In this document: in pieces, positions 1 to 7,319 of the stretch
Numbering within the stretch: position 1 is the stretch's first letter
Layout of the letters: the number at the start of each line of letters is the position of its first letter
Origin: an uncultured Clostridiaceae bacterium
Lineage (GTDB): Bacteria; Bacillota; Clostridia; TANB77; CAG-465
DNA: 7,319 nucleotides
Direction: 5' to 3'
NCBI GenBank assembly: GCA_964371585.1
Contig: CAYJMD010000006.1
Coordinates: 12,831 to 20,149 of the forward strand
Notes under the pieces: model-generated
Databases searched by the model: none
Seen by the model: only the letters and a program-made list of their open reading frames with translations
What the model was told of the DNA's origin: nothing
Position numbers and translations under genes: made by a program

Positions 1-1
1 C

Positions 2-1441
2 TTACAACCTGAAACAAGAAAGAATGAAATGTTTTCTTCTTTCATAGATAAAGGTTTAGAAGATTTATGTGTGTCTAGAACTACATTTACTTGGGGAATT
101 CCAGTAGACTTTGATACAAAACATGTAGTATATGTTTGGATTGATGCATTATCAAATTATATTTCAGCTTTAGGATATTTAACTGAAGATGATACGTTAT
201 TTAAAAAGTATTGGCCAGCAGATATACATTTAGTAGGTAAAGAAATAACAAGATTCCATAGTATAATATGGCCAGCACTACTTATGGCTTTAGACCTTCC
301 ACTTCCTAAAAAGGTATTTGGACATGGATGGCTTGTGGTAGGAGGTAAAAAGATTTCTAAATCTTTTGGAAACTACAAAGATCCAAGAGAATATATTAAA
401 TATTCTAGTGTAGATGCTTTAAGATACTATTTATTAAAAGAAGTTAAATTAGGACTTGATGGTAACTTTGATGAAGAGATGTATATTCAAAGAATCAACT
501 CAGACTTATCAAATGACTTAGGTAATTTAGTAAGTAGAACAATTTCAATGACAGAAAAATATAATGAAGGAGTACTACTTAAAAGTGTATTTGAAAATCT
601 TCCACATACAGATGTAGATACAAATATGATTAATCTGGTAAAAGAAAATATAGACGAATATATAAAACATATGGAAATGAGTAGACCAGATTTAGCTGTA
701 GATAAGGCTATGAATATAATTTCAAATTCAAATAAATACATTGACTTAAATGAGCCTTGGAAGCTTGCTAAAGATGAAGAAAATAAAGATAGATTAAATA
801 AAGTGTTATATATATTAAGTGAGAATATAAGAATTAGTGCTGTTATGTTAAAACCGTATTTAATTGATGCACCAAATAAAATATTATCACAACTAGGAAT
901 TAATCTAGAAGATGAAAACCTTACAATGTTATCAAGCTTAAATAAATATGGAGCTATAGATGATAATACAATTTGTAAGAAAACAGAAAATCTATTCCCA
1001 AGAATAGATAGTAAAGAAGTTTTAGAAAAGGAAGAAAAAATGGAAAATAAAGAAAATGAAGTAAAGAAAGAAGTTGTAGAAAATGCAGCTAAAGTAGAAG
1101 AAGTAAATGAAAAAGGATATATCACAATTGATGACTTATCTAAAGTTGAACTTAAAGTAGGTCAAATAAAAACTGTTGATAGAGTGGAAAAAGCAGATAA
1201 ATTATATAAACTATCGGTAGATGTTGGAGAAGATGAATTAAGAACAATAGTATCAGGTATCGTACCATATTATACCGAAGAAGAACTACTAAACAAACAA
1301 ATAGTTGTTGTAACTAATTTAAAACCAGTTAAACTAAGAGGGATATTATCAAATGGTATGTTACTAGCTGCTGGTGATTCAGATGTTGTTAGTTTATTAA
1401 CTATTGATAAGGCTATAGCAAATGGTGAAAATATTCACTAA
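2..1441 (+). CDS. metG: Methionine--tRNA ligase (MetRS), C-terminal ~480 aa; the 5' end lies upstream of the window
   Basis: The frame is open from base 2 (LQPETRKNE precedes the first ATG at 29), so the ORF-track start at 29 is a truncation artefact. The class I KMSKS loop is present as KISKS (GGKKISKSFGN). A K/E-rich linker is followed by a C-terminal Trbp111/EMAPII-type tRNA-binding OB domain (KVGQIKTVDRVEKADKLYKLSVDVG...SNGMLLAA). Stop TAA 1439-1441. Confidence 0.93.
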   Translation, partial: LQPETRKNEMFSSFIDKGLEDLCVSRTTFTWGIPVDFDTKHVVYVWIDALSNYISALGYLTEDDTLFKKYWPADIHLVGKEITRFHSIIWPALLMALDLPLPKKVFGHGWLVVGGKKISKSFGNYKDPREYIKYSSVDALRYYLLKEVKLGLDGNFDEEMYIQRINSDLSNDLGNLVSRTISMTEKYNEGVLLKSVFENLPHTDVDTNMINLVKENIDEYIKHMEMSRPDLAVDKAMNIISNSNKYIDLNEPWKLAKDEENKDRLNKVLYILSENIRISAVMLKPYLIDAPNKILSQLGINLEDENLTMLSSLNKYGAIDDNTICKKTENLFPRIDSKEVLEKEEKMENKENEVKKEVVENAAKVEEVNEKGYITIDDLSKVELKVGQIKTVDRVEKADKLYKLSVDVGEDELRTIVSGIVPYYTEEELLNKQIVVVTNLKPVKLRGILSNGMLLAAGDSDVVSLLTIDKAIANGENIH

Positions 1442-1453
1442 GGGGGATATACA

Positions 1454-2110
1454 TTGAAAACTAAAGAGGGCAGATTAAAAATATATAAAGAGTTAGTAGA
1501 ATGGGCTGTTTGCATAATAGTTGCATTTATAATTTATTTATTTATAAACTATTTTATTGGAACAATTTCAGGTGTTAAACAAGTATCAATGACACCTACT
1601 GCTGTTGAAGGAGAAAGAGTATATATATCAAGAACTATATTCTTTCAAAAAGAATTAGTTAGAGGAGATATAGTTACATTTTCTTCTCCAGCAGGTTTAA
1701 ATGATATGGATACAGAACCTTCAGAGTTTACTCTTACAGGAGATAATGCAATTGCTTCGTTTGAAGACCTTAACTTTGGAGAAGCTTTTGTACATGATTT
1801 TTTAGGAATCAATAAAGTAAGTTATATTAAAAGAGTAATTGGAGTTGCTTCAGATCATGTATATATTGATGAAGATGGTAATGTATTTGTTAATGATGTA
1901 AAACTTGAGGAAAACTATTTAAACGATGGAACAACAAATAGAAATGGTAAGTATATTGATGTAATCGTTCCAGAAGGAAGTGTTTTCGTTATGGGAGACA
2001 ATAGGTTACATAGTATGGATTCAAGATATTTCGGTTGTGTTCCTCTAGAAGAAATAGAAGGATATGTTGAAGCAAAAGTTTGGCCACTTGATAAGATAGG
2101 ACCACTTTAA
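1454..2110 (+). CDS. lepB: Signal peptidase I (S26 family)
   Basis: TTG start sits 7 nt after a GGGGG Shine-Dalgarno (1442-1446). There is an N-terminal TM helix. The catalytic Ser box is VSMTPTA, followed by RGDIVTF. The catalytic Lys box is YIKRVIG and box E is GDNRLHSMDSRYFG. It begins 12 nt after the metG stop. Confidence 0.9.
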   Translation: MKTKEGRLKIYKELVEWAVCIIVAFIIYLFINYFIGTISGVKQVSMTPTAVEGERVYISRTIFFQKELVRGDIVTFSSPAGLNDMDTEPSEFTLTGDNAIASFEDLNFGEAFVHDFLGINKVSYIKRVIGVASDHVYIDEDGNVFVNDVKLEENYLNDGTTNRNGKYIDVIVPEGSVFVMGDNRLHSMDSRYFGCVPLEEIEGYVEAKVWPLDKIGPL

Positions 2111-2126
2111 GATAGGAGGCAAAGAT

Positions 2127-2963
2127 ATGTTTGAAAACATTATAGGACATAAAGAAGAAATCAATTATTTAATAAACGAACTGAATAATGATACTGTTTC
2201 TCATTCATATCTATTCTTAGGTAAATCTGGAATTGGCAAAAAACTTATAGCTAAAGAATTTGCCAAACAAATATTAAAAGTAAATGATCTAGAGACTTGT
2301 ATAGATTTTAATCTTATTCGAAAAAAAGATGATAAAAAACAAATAGTTGTAGAACAAGTAAGAGATGAAATTTTAAAAGATATCTATATAAAACCGATAT
2401 CTTGTGAAAAAAAACTATATGTAATTGATGAATTTGAAAATTTAAATGTAGCATCCCAAAATGCACTTTTAAAAATACTAGAAGAGCCACCAAAACATGT
2501 ATGTTTTATTATTATTGCATCAACTGAATCTAGTATTCTTGCTACAATATTATCAAGAGTGTCTAAAATTACATTTAGTAGTTTAAGTGATGATGAAATA
2601 AAGTTATATGTGAATAAGAATAATAAAATAGTCACAGATAATGTAATAGAATTTTCAGAAGGTTCAATAGGTGTAATAAACAGTATAATTGGTGATGGAT
2701 ATATAGAAATATTTGAAAATGTAGAAAGATTAACTAATACTATATTAGCTAGTAATTATATTGAATCATATAAAAGTATATCACAAATTAATTTTAATGA
2801 TGAACATATTTTTGACTATTTAATGTATATGCTTAGTAAAAATAATCAATATTTATGCATTAACATAGTTCAAAGATATAAAAACATGTTGCATAATAAT
2901 GGTAATTATGATATTGTAGTAGATAATATGCTACTAAAGTTAATTGAAAGTATTAACAAATAG
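2127..2963 (+). CDS. holB: DNA polymerase III subunit delta' (clamp-loader AAA+ subunit)
   Basis: GGAGG (2115-2119) lies 7 nt before the ATG. Degenerate Walker A is GKSGIGKK. Other motifs are the clamp-loader NALLKILEEPP motif, the sensor ILSRV motif, and DEFENL (Walker B-like). At 278 aa it is short for the family. It sits immediately upstream of a yaaT/ricT homolog, as in Bacillus. Confidence 0.85.
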   Translation: MFENIIGHKEEINYLINELNNDTVSHSYLFLGKSGIGKKLIAKEFAKQILKVNDLETCIDFNLIRKKDDKKQIVVEQVRDEILKDIYIKPISCEKKLYVIDEFENLNVASQNALLKILEEPPKHVCFIIIASTESSILATILSRVSKITFSSLSDDEIKLYVNKNNKIVTDNVIEFSEGSIGVINSIIGDGYIEIFENVERLTNTILASNYIESYKSISQINFNDEHIFDYLMYMLSKNNQYLCINIVQRYKNMLHNNGNYDIVVDNMLLKLIESINK

Positions 2964-2974
2964 AAGGAGAACAT

Positions 2975-3793
2975 ATGGATAATAATGTTTTAGGAATTAG
3001 ATTTAGAAGAACAGGTAAAATGGTATATATGCTTCCTTGTCAAGAAGATCTTAAAGTAGGAGATAAAGTAATTGCTGAAAGTGAAAAAGGTAAGGAAATA
3101 GGAAGAATTGTAAAAATACTTACTAAAGATGAAGTGAAAACAGAGGAACCATTAAATAAAATAATAAAAAAAGCTACAATTGAAGATGATGAAAAACAAA
3201 AACAAAATGTTAAAGAAGCTGAAAAAGTTTTAGAATTTACAAGAAAAGAATTGAAAAATTTACAACTTAACATGAAATTATTATTTTGTGAATATACATT
3301 TGATAAAGGTAAACTTACAATATACTTTACATCTGATGAAAGAGTAGATTTTAGAGAACTTGTAAAAACACTAGCTACAAGATATAAAACAAGAATAGAA
3401 CTTAGACAAATCGGCCCGAGAGATGAAGTTAAAGCCTATTCTAATTTAGGAATGTGTGGAAGAGAAGTTTGTTGTAGAACTTATCTACAAGATTTTAAAT
3501 CTGTAACTATTAAAGATGCGAAAGAACAAGGACTACAAATAAATATGAGTAAACTTTCAGGTGGATGTGGTAGACTTATGTGTTGTTTAAAATATGAAGA
3601 AGAGACATATAGAGATAACTCAAAAAAATTACCCAAAGTAAATGAAATTGTTAGTGTTAGAGAATCTGGTGAAGTAGGAAAAGTTATAGGTATTGATATA
3701 CTTAATTTAAAAGTTAAAGTTAAATTAGGTGATACAAGAGAAAATGAAAGTATAGTTAATTTTAAATTAGATGAATTAATTATTGATAATTAA
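2975..3793 (+). CDS. ricT: PSP1-domain protein RicT/YaaT (stage 0 sporulation / RNase Y maturation accessory protein family)
   Basis: AAGGAGA (2964-2970) precedes the ATG. It has the characteristic PSP1 C-terminal block RIELRQIGPRDEVKAYSNLGMCGREVCCRTYLQDF...LSGGCGRLMCCLKYEEETY with paired Cys-Cys motifs. It holds the conserved position after holB. Confidence 0.88.
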   Translation: MDNNVLGIRFRRTGKMVYMLPCQEDLKVGDKVIAESEKGKEIGRIVKILTKDEVKTEEPLNKIIKKATIEDDEKQKQNVKEAEKVLEFTRKELKNLQLNMKLLFCEYTFDKGKLTIYFTSDERVDFRELVKTLATRYKTRIELRQIGPRDEVKAYSNLGMCGREVCCRTYLQDFKSVTIKDAKEQGLQINMSKLSGGCGRLMCCLKYEEETYRDNSKKLPKVNEIVSVRESGEVGKVIGIDILNLKVKVKLGDTRENESIVNFKLDELIIDN

Positions 3794-3796
3794 TAG

Positions 3797-3982
<186 letters not shown>

Positions 3983-3987
3983 AAATG

Positions 3988-4036
3988 AACCTTTAAGAGT
4001 ATAGAGAATATACTTTCTTAAAGGTTTATTTTTTTA
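3988..4036. terminator. Bidirectional rho-independent terminator between the convergent fdx and pyruvyl transferase genes
   Basis: AACCTTTAAGA (3988-3998) pairs perfectly with TCTTAAAGGTT (4016-4026). An inner helix GTATA (3999-4003) / TATAC (4009-4013) has a GAGAA loop. On the + strand a T-tract TTTATTTTTTT (4025-4035) follows. On the - strand the same hairpin is followed by CATTTTT (complement of 3981-3987). The T-tract overlaps the stop codon of the - strand gene. Confidence 0.85.
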
Positions 4037-5083
4037 TTTAATTAATTTATTAAATGAGTTAAAATGTTTTGCAGAGTCCTTTGATAATGAATTTATAATT
4101 TCAGAATTAGTTTCTTGATATGAATTTATATCTAATAAATCATCACTTGTAATATTTTCTAAATTAATATATGAACTAGTTATTTTAGTATCATTTACTA
4201 CAGTAAGAAGTTTATTGCTATATGATAGTACTATAAATTTATGTCCAAGCTTACTTGATAGTATCATAGAATGAAATCTAGAACATATCATAAACTCCAT
4301 TTTTGAATAGATATTCATAAAATCATCTAAAGAAGAATTATAATCTACAATGTTTATTTTAGCAGAATAGCTGTCTGGTAAAATCTCTATAAGATTATTA
4401 CAAGCCTCTACATCACCTTCTGCATCACAAAATGGAAATAAATATATAGAATAACCATCATCTATGTATTTTTTTATATTGTTTGCTAAACACTTTAAAT
4501 AATCTTTAGTAACATGTTGTAAATTGGATTTTTTCTTTAAATCTATCATTGAAATTCCTATTGATTTTTTTATTGTCTCAGTGTCATTAATATCTAAACC
4601 AAATACAATATCCGGTGCTAGTGATACATTATTTAAATCGCTGAATATATCAAAAGAATATTTATCTCTAAAACAAGTATGAGTTACTGTTTTTAGTACA
4701 TTTCTTGTTAAATTTAAGTATTCTTCAGTTTTGTATGGACCGAAGTTTGTTCCCATATAGAAAAAAGGAACATTCAAAGCTTTAGCTTCTTTAACAAAAT
4801 CATATAAAGTTTGTAATCTATTTATAGAATTTGGAGCTTCAATGAATAGTGATCCACCAATATATATGATTGAATCATAATTTTGTATAATACTTGTATC
4901 AAAAACAAATTTTTTGTTTATAATAGTTAAGTTAGTTATATTATTAATAGCAAAAGCATCATCTATATTTTCTACATAAATAGAAAAATTAATATTAGGA
5001 TACTTTTTAGTAATCATAGAAATGAATAAATCATCGCCTACATTTGCTTTAGTATATGCAATTAAAAGAACATTTTTTATCAA
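4034..5083 (-). CDS. Polysaccharide pyruvyl transferase family protein (PS_pyruv_trans / CsaB-WcaK-like)
   Basis: N-terminal motif is LLIAYTKANVGDDLF (the family NxGD[DE] motif). Mid motif is IIYIGGSLF. C-terminal motif is ICSRFHSMILSSKLGHKFIVLSYSNKL (the family R[LF]H motif followed by a Y/S-x-x-K block). I moved the start from the ORF-track 5098 to the TTG at 5083. The codons at 5098-5090 (TTG GAG GCG) themselves contain GGAGG (5096-5092), which sits 8 nt before the in-frame TTG at 5083. Confidence 0.75.
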   Translation of the reverse strand: MIKNVLLIAYTKANVGDDLFISMITKKYPNINFSIYVENIDDAFAINNITNLTIINKKFVFDTSIIQNYDSIIYIGGSLFIEAPNSINRLQTLYDFVKEAKALNVPFFYMGTNFGPYKTEEYLNLTRNVLKTVTHTCFRDKYSFDIFSDLNNVSLAPDIVFGLDINDTETIKKSIGISMIDLKKKSNLQHVTKDYLKCLANNIKKYIDDGYSIYLFPFCDAEGDVEACNNLIEILPDSYSAKINIVDYNSSLDDFMNIYSKMEFMICSRFHSMILSSKLGHKFIVLSYSNKLLTVVNDTKITSSYINLENITSDDLLDINSYQETNSEIINSLSKDSAKHFNSFNKLIK

Positions 5084-5103
5084 AATAATCGCCTCCAAAC
5101 CAT

Positions 5104-5132: not shown

Positions 5133-5152
5133 TGGTATTATTTAAAAGAAAT

Positions 5153-5183
5153 AAAAAAACACTCTAATCAATTGATTAAAGTG
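5153..5183 (-). terminator. Rho-independent terminator of the 66-aa gene (cassette terminator copy 1)
   Basis: The - strand RNA folds as CACUUUAAUC-AAUU-GAUUAGAGUG (10 bp including one G.U) followed by UUUUUUU (complement of 5153-5159). It lies 12 nt after the stop at 5195. It is the same CAATTG-centred hairpin as at 5538-5572 and 6511-6544. Confidence 0.8.
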
Positions 5184-5194
5184 CTTTAATGATT

Positions 5195-5395
5195 TTACTC
5201 GAAGTCAAACCCATCAGCAATATCATTAAAAAATGATGAGCTTCCAAATAGGTTGTCATTGTTGCTAAATTCAGACATTGGTAATTCTGATTGGGCTGCA
5301 TTTTGGAAAATGTTTCCAATAATGTCCATAGTTAATACCACGGCTAAAATAGAAATCAGAAGGATAATTGTTGTTGTAATAATTGCTTTTTTCAT
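5195..5395 (-). CDS. Small (66 aa) N-terminally anchored or secreted protein; minimal member of the cassette array
   Basis: It is preceded by the conserved leader, with GGAGG 7 nt before the ATG. It starts MKK plus a hydrophobic helix (AIITTTIILLISILAVVL) followed by TMD, as in the two larger paralogs (ETMDQ). The tail is acidic and S/F/N/D-rich. It has its own promoter and terminator. Two overlapping ORF-track entries were rejected in its favour. Confidence 0.6.
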   Translation of the reverse strand: MKKAIITTTIILLISILAVVLTMDIIGNIFQNAAQSELPMSEFSNNDNLFGSSSFFNDIADGFDFE

Positions 5396-5482
5396 TGTAA
5401 TACCTCCAAGTATTAAAAAAATTTTGTTGATACAAATCTCTAATCTTTATCAATTGTTAAAGATTTATATATATGTTTTTCA
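5396..5482 (-). promoter_or_regulatory. Conserved 5' leader, copy A (5387-5465 is identical to 7237-7315)
   Basis: The mRNA-sense core is AATCTTTAACAATTGATAAAGATTAGAGATTTGTATCAACAAAATTTTTTTAATACTTGGAGGTATTACA-ATG. It contains a 24-nt near-palindrome (5442-5465) and the SD. The upper boundary is the transcription start predicted about 7 nt downstream of the -10 box. Confidence 0.7.
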
Positions 5483-5488
5483 CTATTA

Positions 5489-5517
5489 ATTATACCATAT
5501 TTTAAACATTATGTCAA
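5489..5517 (-). promoter_or_regulatory. Consensus sigma-A promoter of the 66-aa cassette
   Basis: The - strand reads TTGACA (5517-5512), a 17-nt spacer, then TGgTATAAT (-10 at 5494-5489). Both hexamers are perfect and an extended -10 TG is present. Confidence 0.8.
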
Positions 5518-5537
5518 CTATCATGAGATTTGTTGAA

Positions 5538-5572
5538 CAAATAAAAACACCCTAATCAATTGATTAGAGTGT
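5538..5572 (-). terminator. Rho-independent terminator of the 262-aa gene (cassette terminator copy 2)
   Basis: The - strand RNA folds as ACACUCUAAUC-AAUU-GAUUAGGGUGU (11 bp including one G.U) followed by UUUUUAUUU. It starts 7 nt after the stop codon (5579-5581). The 40-nt block 5538-5577 is identical to 6510-6549. Confidence 0.85.
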
Positions 5573-5578
5573 TTAATT

Positions 5579-6367
5579 TTATCCAAAATTAACATTGTCA
5601 TCTGCATAAAGCAAATCCTCAGTTGGTTCTGGTTTTGGTTCTGGAGTTGGTTTAGAACTAGATTCAGGTTTAGGACTTGGACTTAAAAATTCGTCAATAA
5701 CTTCATCTAGAGTAGTATTTGAATTATTTGTTCCAAAGAATACATCATTCCACTGTTCAACAGTTTTAATGTCTTCAATGATAAGAGTCCATATATATTT
5801 TGGATCACCATCAAAAACATATTCATCCTCTGGTACTAATGATTCAATACAATCAGTACGTACAAAGCCTAAATATTTACCTGAGTCATCACGTTCAGCA
5901 ATGTAGTACTGATCTTTACCTTCGTGGTAGACCCTGTATACTTTGTGAGTAATCTCTCTAGATGGATTACAAGTGCTACAATATTCAGAGCTAGAGCCTA
6001 TGTGAACACAAGAGATTACAGCTGACTCCATTTCTGCTAAAAAAATTTCTTGCTCAAATGGAATTTCTGGTTCGGGTTCGGGTTTTGGAGTTGCGTCAGT
6101 ATATTTTTCTATTTCTATAGGATCCTTTATAGAATGAACACAAGGGCCTGAAGAAGATTCATAACTATAAAAGTTTTCTGTATATGGATCTATGTTAATA
6201 GCATCTAACGCTAAAGCTTCATTAGATTGATCTATGTTAATAGTACCTAACTCTAAAGCTTCATTAGATTGATCCATTGTTTCAATTGGTGTAGTTCCCA
6301 ATAAGTAGCCCGTACCAAATGATGCGATTAGTGATAGTGCGATTGTTAATGTAGTAAGTTTTTTCAT
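5579..6367 (-). CDS. Signal-anchored or secreted protein, 262 aa, paralog of 6595-7245 (unrecognised family)
   Basis: GGAGG lies 7 nt before the ATG. It starts MKKLTT plus a hydrophobic helix, then the juxtamembrane motif GTTPIETMDQSNEALE. A 14-aa tandem repeat and PKPEPEPE / PTPEPKPEP linkers follow. It carries the Cys motif CVHIGSSSEYCSTCNP. The C-terminal domain YRVYHEGKDQYYIAE...SLVPEDEYVF...PKYIWTLIIEDI...WN...SNTTLDEVIDEFL is shared with the next gene. Confidence 0.85.
   Translation of the reverse strand: MKKLTTLTIALSLIASFGTGYLLGTTPIETMDQSNEALELGTINIDQSNEALALDAINIDPYTENFYSYESSSGPCVHSIKDPIEIEKYTDATPKPEPEPEIPFEQEIFLAEMESAVISCVHIGSSSEYCSTCNPSREITHKVYRVYHEGKDQYYIAERDDSGKYLGFVRTDCIESLVPEDEYVFDGDPKYIWTLIIEDIKTVEQWNDVFFGTNNSNTTLDEVIDEFLSPSPKPESSSKPTPEPKPEPTEDLLYADDNVNFG
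6187..6274 (-). repeat. In-frame 42-nt tandem duplication (two units) inside the 262-aa gene
   Basis: Unit 6189-6230 differs from unit 6231-6272 at 3 of 42 positions. They encode DQSNEALELGTINI and DQSNEALALDAINI. Confidence 0.9.
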
Positions 6368-6455
6368 TGTAATACCTCCAAGTATTAAAAAAAATTTTGT
6401 TGATACAAATCTCTAATCTTTATCAATTGTTAAAGATTCATATATTTAATGTACA
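6368..6455 (-). promoter_or_regulatory. Conserved 5' leader, copy B
   Basis: 6349-6443 matches 7227-7319 except for one extra A in the homopolymer run (A8 at 6387-6394, versus A7 in copies A and C). The near-palindrome is at 6415-6438. Confidence 0.7.
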
Positions 6456-6461
6456 ATATTA

Positions 6462-6490
6462 ATTATATCACATTTAATGTGTTATGTCAA
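6462..6490 (-). promoter_or_regulatory. Consensus sigma-A promoter of the 262-aa cassette
   Basis: The - strand reads TTGACA (6490-6485), a 17-nt spacer, then TGaTATAAT (-10 at 6467-6462). Both hexamers are perfect and an extended -10 TG is present. The hexamers are conserved with copy A while the spacer and flanks have diverged. Confidence 0.8.
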
Positions 6491-6510
6491 CTAGTTTGGT
6501 AGAGTTTTGC

Positions 6511-6544
6511 AAATAAAAACACCCTAATCAATTGATTAGAGTGT
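6511..6544 (-). terminator. Rho-independent terminator of the 216-aa gene (cassette terminator copy 3)
   Basis: It has the same hairpin and U-tract as 5538-5572 (40 nt identical). It lies about 50 nt downstream of the stop at 6595. Confidence 0.8.
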
Positions 6545-6594
6545 TTAATGTTTAAGTTTAAAATTTATCTTGTATAAGCTAATTCTTTAAACAG

Positions 6595-7245
6595 TTATAG
6601 GTTTGGTTTTTCATTTGAAATTGAAACTGACAGAGGATCAATTATATTATCCAAAGTCAAAAAATGTTCAATGATTTCGTCTAATGTGTTATTTGAACCA
6701 TTCTTACCATTAAATTCACTATTCCATTTTTCGATAGTGATAATGTCTTTAATAATATATGTCCATGAGTATTTTGGATTACTATTAAAAACATAGTCTT
6801 CTTCTGGAACTAATGAATAAAAAAGACCATTAAACTCTAAAGGTCGCATTGAATCACTATATTCTGCAATATAATACTTGTCTTCACCTTCATGGTAAAG
6901 TCTATATAGCTTGCAAGTAATTTCTTTAGGTGAATTGTGTTCTAGGTAATCTTCATCACTATCACTTACATGTAGAGATTCAGAAAGAAACGGATCCACT
7001 TGAGGTTTTGGATTGCATTCTTTGCAATCATCAGAGCTCTCACCTATATGCATACAGTCATCAAGATAAAGATTTGATGTAGGTGTAGATTCTAACTCGG
7101 GCTCTAAAGAGAGACTAATAGTGTTAAACTCTAAAGTTTTGTTTGTTTGGTCCATAGTTTCAAGTTGTGTGGTTCCCCATAAGCAAATAACTGCTAATAT
7201 GGAGACTGCGCAGAGGATGATCATTGATGTAGTAAGTTTTTTCAT
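6595..7245 (-). CDS. Signal-anchored or secreted protein, 216 aa, paralog of 5579-6367 (unrecognised family)
   Basis: It has the same SD and leader. It starts MKKLTT plus a hydrophobic helix, then GTTQLETMDQTNKTLE. It carries the Cys motif CMHIGESSDDCKECNP. The C-terminal domain is YRLYHEGEDKYYIAE...SLVPEEDYVF...PKYSWTYIIKDI...WN...SNNTLDEIIEHFL. Confidence 0.85.
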   Translation of the reverse strand: MKKLTTSMIILCAVSILAVICLWGTTQLETMDQTNKTLEFNTISLSLEPELESTPTSNLYLDDCMHIGESSDDCKECNPKPQVDPFLSESLHVSDSDEDYLEHNSPKEITCKLYRLYHEGEDKYYIAEYSDSMRPLEFNGLFYSLVPEEDYVFNSNPKYSWTYIIKDIITIEKWNSEFNGKNGSNNTLDEIIEHFLTLDNIIDPLSVSISNEKPNL

Positions 7246-7319
7246 TGTAATACCTCCAAGTATTAAAAAAATTTTGTTGATACAAATCTCTAATCTTTAT
7301 CAATTGTTAAAGATTCATA
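7246..7319 (-). promoter_or_regulatory. Conserved 5' leader, copy C (truncated by the window end; its promoter is off-window)
   Basis: 7237-7315 is identical to 5387-5465. The near-palindrome is at 7292-7315. Confidence 0.7.

Follow-up and report, generated by a model that had tools for sequence, protein, structure and literature searches.

The last 2.2 kb of the 7,319-nucleotide (nt) stretch of DNA analyzed here (the window; contig CAYJMD010000006.1, positions 12,831 to 20,149, from assembly GCA_964371585.1 of an uncultured Clostridiaceae bacterium) carry three consecutive minus-strand genes, which we call A, B and C, whose regulatory modules are far better conserved than the coding sequences that they flank. 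We favor the reading, to which we assign a probability of roughly 60%, that this array is a small lineage-specific family of tandem paralogs organized as autonomous transcription units, and that the leader common to all of them serves as an RNA-level expression module. The initial annotation had described three similarly built genes of 66, 262 and 216 amino acids (aa), and both these open reading frames (ORFs) and the order of modules around them are borne out by our analysis.

The transcription signals of the array, all on the minus strand, are unusually close to consensus. Promoters A (5489..5517) and B (6462..6490) each consist of TTGACA, a 17-nt spacer and TGnTATAAT (an extended -10 element), agreeing at 12 of 12 hexamer positions and at the TG, and the window holds exactly these two perfect matches where shuffled sequences lead one to expect 0.01, in line with what had been claimed for the two complete cassettes. 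Promoter C lies outside the window, and statements about promoters therefore cover cassettes A and B, whose promoters have the makeup of sigma-70/sigma-A extended -10 promoters and are predicted to be active. Leader A (5396..5482) would be transcribed from a start near 5481-5483 and carries GGAGG 7 nt ahead of the ATG; its conserved block (5396-5469) runs on into the first 9 nt of the coding sequence (CDS). Leaders B (6368..6455) and C (7246..7319, cut by the end of the window with its promoter beyond) were delimited by their identity to the other copies. Leaders A and C match at 82 of 83 positions (5387-5469 and 7237-7319), with 79 nt identical without interruption (5387-5465 and 7237-7315), and leader B (6360-6442) has one extra T in its T-run, as the earlier reading had it. 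Overall the copies differ by one homopolymer indel and one transition. The sole difference in length is a run of seven T on the transcript strand in A (5419-5425) and C (7269-7275) and of eight in B (6391-6398); this homopolymer sits between the leader stem-loop and the Shine–Dalgarno sequence (SD), and the pattern is typical of slippage.

At the other end of each unit stands a predicted terminator. Terminator A (5147..5187; site called at 5187-5156) is a 14-bp CAATTG-centered hairpin followed by a U-run, with a predicted energy of -14.4 kcal/mol; terminator B (5535..5574; site called at 5574-5545) has a 13-bp hairpin of the same kind at -15.2 kcal/mol; and terminator C (6507..6546; site called at 6546-6517) is the same as B over 40 nt (5538-5577 and 6510-6549), an identity already reported and confirmed here. 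Altogether three hairpin and U-run sites were found on the minus strand against 0.5 expected, with stems of 13-14 bp, energies of -14.4 to -15.2 kcal/mol and tails of UUUUUAUUUG or UUUUUUUAUUU, lying 4, 7 and, for C, 48 nt past the stop codons. These features are those of intrinsic (Rho-independent) terminators, and the promoter and terminator layout around each gene agrees with the three monocistronic units that had been predicted. The leader copies form direct repeats of 79-83 nt spaced 877-973 bp apart.

The bodies between these modules have a different history. Genes B (5579..6367) and C (6595..7245) are paralogs, with 40% identity over 229 aa (BLASTP E = 1e-46) and 53% in a C-terminal domain of ~95 aa, within the half to 60 percent that had been estimated by eye. 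Gene A (5195..5395), whose product combines a hydrophobic N-terminal helix with an acidic tail, has in common with C only its first ~20 residues (9/20 identical, E = 0.005) and nothing further with B; homology of its body to B or C was rejected, no similarity appearing in the comparisons. Between B and C, synonymous divergence (dS, by Nei–Gojobori) is 1.1 over all aligned codons; the C-terminal domain gives dS 0.97, nonsynonymous divergence (dN) 0.29 and dN/dS ~0.3, residues 26-45 give dN = 0.25 and dS = 1.09, and identity at third codon positions is 63% in the conserved domain and 38% in the middle region, 33% being expected from composition. Because dS is ~1 with dN/dS ~0.3 in the C-terminal domain, we regard B and C, on their substitution pattern, as old duplicates under purifying selection and not as pseudogenes. 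C is shorter than B through a stop codon: since its 3' untranslated region (UTR; 6547-6594) aligns with the last ~16 codons of B (5579-5630; score 32, where shuffles give -3 +/- 8.6), this stop seems to have truncated C, whose former tail now forms the spacer ahead of the terminator. A Pro/Glu/Lys-rich tail is found in B only and not in C.

Set against a dS of ~1.0-1.1, the conservation of the non-coding modules is striking, with 74/75 identical positions between leaders B and C, 73/74 between A and C, and 40/41 in the terminator. In an alignment of cassettes B and C that is 58% identical overall, the longest identical runs are the two halves of the leader split by the indel (48 + 45 nt) and the terminator (40 nt); the next-longest is 10 nt, and 5000 permutations yielded runs of up to 27 nt. 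Given near-identical leader and terminator in a coding background with dS ~1, neutral decay, as judged from these alignments, cannot account for the non-coding blocks.

What the leader might do is suggested by its predicted fold, which comprises a 14-bp imperfect stem-loop (AUAUAAAUCUUUAA / UUAGAGAUUUGUAU, -8.8 to -9.7 kcal/mol), a linker and a hairpin around SD and AUG; in this last element the run of seven or eight U is predicted to pair with the AAAAAA of codons 2-3 and to enclose the hairpin, so presenting GGAGG and AUG. Both edges of the conserved leader block fall on predicted helices, at the base of the 14-bp stem on the 5' side and at AAAAAA on the 3' side.

Such boundaries bear on how the modules have been kept. 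Promoters A and B are identical in their hexamers and TG and differ at 7 of 17 spacer positions; three positions in the stem of terminator A are substituted relative to B and C, each time with pairing retained (A-U/G-U, U-G/U-A and C-G/U-G); and the single substitution in the leader stem likewise retains pairing (A-U/G-U). Because hexamers and TG are kept beside a diverged spacer, stem changes preserve pairing and the leader block ends at predicted helices, we suggest that these patterns point to selection on function. We further propose that short-tract gene conversion has also helped to keep the leader copies identical, because the identity of loop and linker exceeds the needs of any fold. 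Inside the coding regions there is no sign of conversion, runs in the CDS part of the B/C alignment being at most 10 nt. Of the explanations offered earlier, selection and gene conversion thus both fit, and both are suggested to act, whereas an exchange of cassettes finds no support: B and C are ordinary tandem paralogs, the 3' UTR of C is a decayed copy of the tail of B, and the ORFs of the window include no recombinase, integrase or regulator gene, with no inversion, inverted sites or mobility signal either.

Taken together, we propose the following picture. Transcription of each gene would start at a sigma-A-type promoter that matches the consensus and has an extended -10 element. The resulting mRNA of roughly 0.3-1 kb would carry a ~85-nt leader, a strong and optimally spaced GGAGG site and codons for MKK and a hydrophobic N-terminus, acting as a Sec signal peptide or membrane anchor, and would end at an efficient intrinsic terminator. 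B and C would stem from a long-ago duplication (dS ~1) and both would still encode functional proteins, and A would retain the 5' module alone. Purifying selection would keep the promoter hexamers and terminator stems, and selection plus short-tract gene conversion among the copies would hold the leader identical. The leader itself would be mainly an RNA-level module, in which the 5' stem-loop and the structurally presented SD set mRNA stability and translation, so that the common leader would give three surface proteins equal, high and coordinated expression.

Several observations weigh against this picture. The leader fold is only moderately more stable than shuffled sequences (z = -2.5, with 4 of 200 shuffles equally stable), and three near-identical copies give no covariation. 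Compared with stabilizers of the aprE/slpA type, the leader has the 14-bp stem and the GGAGG, with the stem beginning ~12 nt from the predicted transcription start; the classical 5'-terminal stabilizers of B. subtilis tolerate less than ~12 nt from the 5' end. The complete identity of loop and linker goes beyond what RNA structure needs, so that selection and conversion may contribute to it in any proportion. Transcription starts, stops and monocistronic status are predictions. The array is known from one genome only, and its proteins find no significant match in Pfam, PHROGs, NCBIfam, PADLOC or PDB sequence searches. No homolog turned up among ~15 billion proteins; a word-index search and an exhaustive HMMER search, the latter through 1.84 billion representatives, recovered just B and C themselves. 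AlphaFold2 models are poor (predicted local distance difference test score, pLDDT, of 35 for full-length B and 46 for the C-terminal domain), and Foldseek with these models gave nothing at E <= 0.001.

A contrasting possibility is that the leader acts mainly as a DNA operator, at which a shared repressor would hold three promoters of maximal strength off until a signal arrives, much as the erp operator of Borrelia does. Perfect consensus promoters are usually under the control of a repressor, and directly downstream of the start lie the palindromes AATCTTTA-N8-TAAAGATT and TTGATA-N15-TATCAA, the 8-bp-arm palindrome recurring in all three leaders where 0.62 matches with <=3 mismatches would be expected. 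The motif TWATCAATTGWTWA, moreover, is common to the leader and terminator hairpins, and in Borrelia erp both promoter and operator DNA are conserved and the genes co-expressed (PMC10016077). However, the window contains no regulator gene, the identity reaches far past the palindromes into SD, AUG and the Lys-Lys codons, for which an operator has no need, and the motif TWATCAATTGWTWA was defined post hoc, so that its count is no fair test, with only weak similarity between leader and terminator; on balance we consider an operator unlikely. We likewise find it improbable that recurrent gene conversion alone, which needs copies that still resemble each other, maintains the islands of identity, the modules then having nothing beyond ordinary promoter, ribosome-binding site (RBS) and terminator activity. 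Such an origin would be consistent with a leader that is fully identical even in predicted loops and linker, with terminators B and C identical over 40 nt and with leader differences confined to a homopolymer indel and one transition, and it has a parallel in rRNA operon copies, which gene conversion keeps identical (PMC8022953). Yet each of the three copies has its block edges at structural and functional boundaries, the 70%-identical C-terminal domain contains no conversion tract of more than 10 nt, and promoters and terminator A show the pattern of selection and not of homogenization; an identity island also requires some initial cause for exceeding the conservation of its flanks.

Very unlikely, in our view, is a locus of programmed variation, in which recombination at the leader and terminator repeats would rearrange cassettes, remove them or raise their number as in Mycoplasma vsp/vpma or S. 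aureus lpl. Direct repeats of this length and spacing could allow RecA to delete or duplicate whole units without damaging them, B contains an in-frame 42-nt repeat, the locus belongs to a variable envelope island, and there are precedents (PMC2568036 and PMC10504702). But recombination among co-oriented units with their own promoters would not switch expression, the window is without a recombinase gene or inverted sites, the B/C divergence is old and steady (dS ~1) with no mosaic tracts, and a single genome is at hand, with no variation observed. There is finally the concern that the array is a collapsed or duplicated repeat of the assembly. Assemblers often break at repeats, and the window stops inside leader copy C at the non-round length of 7319, which raises the suspicion of a contig end at a repeat. 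The three units nonetheless have differing bodies, promoter spacers and flanks, and in the stretches that separate the identical blocks ~30-60% of positions are different in B and C, where an artefactual duplicate would be identical throughout; because bodies and flanks differ, an artefact is excluded in practice.

The proposed RNA-level module matches no Rfam family. An Rfam scan of the whole window gave no match to a cis-regulatory leader at E <= 1, and the leader alone, searched up to E = 10, gave only non-significant matches on the opposite strand (GibS and csRNA). Yfr10 (RF02362) was rejected: it scored 35.2 bits at terminator C and 30.7 bits at terminator B, below the gathering threshold of 43, with only its 3' terminator-like helix matching and its 5' helix essentially absent. 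Several other readings were dismissed. A transcription attenuator is incompatible with a U-run that begins 8 nt past the stem, too distant, and a CsrA site with a sole GGA that is the SD itself. A type I toxin–antitoxin system was rejected because only A is small and the same leader also precedes the 216- and 262-aa proteins; near the leaders, plus-strand promoter matches do not exceed 9/12, and the antisense Rfam matches are the non-significant ones just mentioned. An upstream ORF was rejected as well, having a TTG start, no SD and a frame broken by the T8 of copy B. Mechanical ORFs do overlap the leaders at 5253-5489 (+), 5271-5453 (-) and 7160-7303 (-), none of them with an SD, and are probably not genes; one overlapping frame is TTG-initiated (MIKIRDLYQQNFF...), and the extra T of copy B would end it after 13 codons.

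Leader and terminator also have a palindrome in common. Every unit carries a CAATTG-centered near-palindrome, TWATCAATTGWTWA, both in the loop of its leader hairpin and in its terminator hairpin, at 5165-5178, 5447-5460, 5553-5566, 6420-6433, 6525-6538 and 7297-7310. CAATTG itself is found 10 times in the window against 2.9 expected, with 7 of the 10 inside the 2.2-kb array, a count that is not a fair test for a motif defined post hoc, and leader and terminator resemble each other only weakly (p = 0.006 in copy A and 0.05 in the other two). The palindrome could reflect a shared binding factor or a common origin, and could equally be due to chance. We regard as quite doubtful the bolder idea that the leader represents a novel cis-regulatory element, acting as RNA or as operator and defining a surface-protein regulon in an undescribed lineage of Clostridia, with a dedicated factor that recognizes TWATCAATTGWTWA and would co-regulate the units or mobilize them as exchangeable cassettes.

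Searches for the modules elsewhere, which the initial annotation had put forward as a check, were negative in every collection scanned. A 20-mer of the leader/terminator set gave a single chance match among GTDB representative genomes, in a Nostoc metagenome-assembled genome (MAG), and another gave three chance matches in JGI metagenomes, all within one gene; four leader/terminator patterns had no match in viral contigs, blastn against phages and plasmids returned nothing meaningful, and an nhmmer search of loci that included the syntenic L002, L003 and L007-L009 detected neither leader nor terminator copies. The suggestion that more cassettes lie past 7319 must be divided accordingly: it is unlikely that the family itself extends into a longer array, the exhaustive protein searches returning only B and C and no third large paralog, and further cassettes with unrelated cargo like that of A are possible.

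We suggest an envelope or surface role for A, B and C, because of their N-terminal hydrophobic segment, their isoelectric points (pI) of 4.1-4.3, their Pro-rich linkers, a CsaB-like neighbor and the envelope genes that fill the corresponding slot in relatives. All three proteins start with MKK followed by a hydrophobic stretch, whose maximal Kyte-Doolittle value in a 19-residue window is 2.67 in A, 1.48 in B and 2.58 in C. Candidate -3/-1 sites of a signal peptide, LIA/S and LxG/TT, were read by eye, and the proteins may be either cleaved or anchored. No lipobox [LVI][ASTVI][GAS]C is present in A, B or C: A and B are without Cys in their first 27 residues, and Cys12 and Cys21 of C stand in contexts (IIL-C and VI-C) that do not fit it. 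Inspection of the three sequences revealed no sortase motif.

B, which combines a putative signal peptide or anchor with a 14-aa repeat, a Cys/His motif, the C-terminal domain and its tail, shares further details with C. Directly behind the hydrophobic stretch both have the segment GTTx[IL]ETMDQ. The motif C-x-H-I-G-x-S-S-x-x-C-x-x-C-N-P is found in B at residues 120-135 (~5963-6010) and in C at residues 64-79 (~7009-7056), with a second, degenerate copy at 76-83 of B and 91-106 of C; the MAFFT alignment A2 leaves the good copies of B and C unaligned with each other. This motif may be a metal-binding knuckle. In B, an in-frame 42-nt tandem repeat at 6187-6274 (2.1 copies, 93% matches) encodes the 14-aa unit IDQSNEALxLxxIN, of which gene C has a related single copy at 7116-7183; the repeat of B is a possible site of length variation.

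The genomic setting of the array is in keeping with an envelope function. On the plus strand of the window, which has a guanine plus cytosine (G+C) content of 28%, are the 3' part of metG, a signal peptidase I gene (lepB), holB, ricT (PSP1) and a 2x[4Fe-4S] ferredoxin gene (fdx), and from ~4030 on gene orientation switches to the minus strand. The surrounding ricT-fdx backbone is kept in five distant relatives (L002, L007, L009, L010 and L011, compared with window positions 1-5100), and the full metG-lepB-holB-ricT-fdx order in those whose contig extends far enough upstream. The segment after fdx is different in each of the five, consisting mostly of glycosyltransferases with other envelope genes and genes for HD-domain, leucine-rich repeat (LRR) and metallophosphatase proteins, and the three longest loci continue with a 62-aa gene and valS. 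The array is missing from the syntenic loci of all five, and its place appears, from this comparison, to be a variable cell-envelope island downstream of metG-lepB-holB-ricT-fdx. The named relatives are 'Clostridia bacterium' MAGs, and because the nearest RicT in the databases is just 67% identical, we take the source to be a deep-branching, sparsely sampled lineage.

In its architecture the array resembles several families of surface-protein genes. The erp genes of Borrelia burgdorferi (OspE/F-related, with an 'upstream homology box') join a conserved promoter/operator, 5' region and leader peptide to diverse exposed parts and are co-expressed (PMC10016077). They differ in encoding lipoproteins from allelic sites on separate cp32 prophage plasmids, under a defined operator with known binding proteins, whereas the present array has no lipobox and is a chromosomal tandem of three members. 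The vsp genes of Mycoplasma encode lipoproteins too, and they switch through a site-specific recombinase and DNA inversions. By contrast, the units of the array are co-oriented, two are seen with their own full consensus promoter and the window has no recombinase ORF; a phase-variable locus of vsp type was rejected on these grounds and for want of inverted sites within the window. What vsp of Mycoplasma bovis does have in common with the array is a cluster of surface-protein genes with a conserved ~150-bp upstream and 75-bp signal-peptide region and variable, internally repetitive bodies (PMC10504702). In the lpl genes of S. aureus, also tandem envelope paralogs, a conserved block is the recombination site and the boundary of the evolutionary unit (Tsuru and Kobayashi 2008; PMC2568036); that block, however, lies in mid-ORF and the unit spans two genes, whereas in the array the blocks are the non-coding ends and the ORF body is the unit. 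Because it has no lipobox, recombinase, inversions or prophage plasmid, and its conserved blocks stand outside the ORFs, the array belongs to none of the families compared.

Likenesses of another kind concern the leader and the boundaries of the units. Between a strong promoter and a strong terminator, Lactobacillus slpA (PMC10221546) and the B. subtilis aprE leader have a long 5' UTR with a stable stem-loop and a strong RBS that is exposed, an arrangement predicted for the array too, and 5' UTR modules raise mRNA stability and expose the RBS in slpA (PMC10221546) and in the aprE leader (Hambraeus 2002, as cited in PMC3997798). Those are single genes with measured half-lives, whereas in the array three genes have in common a stem that is only a prediction and begins ~12 nt from the predicted 5' end. 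With integrons the array has in common the term 'cassette' and units that each finish in an imperfect palindrome on the 3' side, but integron cassettes are promoterless, mutually unrelated, bounded by attC and inserted by an integrase. The units of the array have their own promoters and end in palindromes that are U-run terminators, two of the genes (B and C) are paralogous and the window holds no integrase, and an integron cassette array was rejected.

A shared promoter, 5' region and signal in front of variable bodies is already known, and the array is an orphan instance of it, not a new genetic system; it opens no new class and has no bearing on a long-standing question. If the proposed reading is true, it offers a clean natural case of non-coding expression modules outlasting the coding sequence they serve, with proteins drifted to 40% identity, and a small case study of concerted evolution confined to regulatory DNA. 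It would also supply a compact and apparently very strong set of promoter, leader and terminator from an anaerobe of 28% GC, possibly useful as an expression part, and draw attention to a pair of orphan surface proteins that share a ~95-aa conserved domain and a Cys/His motif.

Next to the array and outside it lies the CsaB/WcaK-like polysaccharide pyruvyl transferase gene (4034..5098, minus strand; Pfam PF04230, E = 4e-37), whose match to the NCBIfam CsaB model falls under the cut-off of that model. It has a promoter-like site of its own at 5132-5104. The TTG at 5083 (MIKNVLL...) is its likelier start, which may account for the absence of the 354-aa translation from the protein collection; the first in-frame start of that ORF, a TTG at 5098, overlaps the gene's own GGAGG at 5092-5096.

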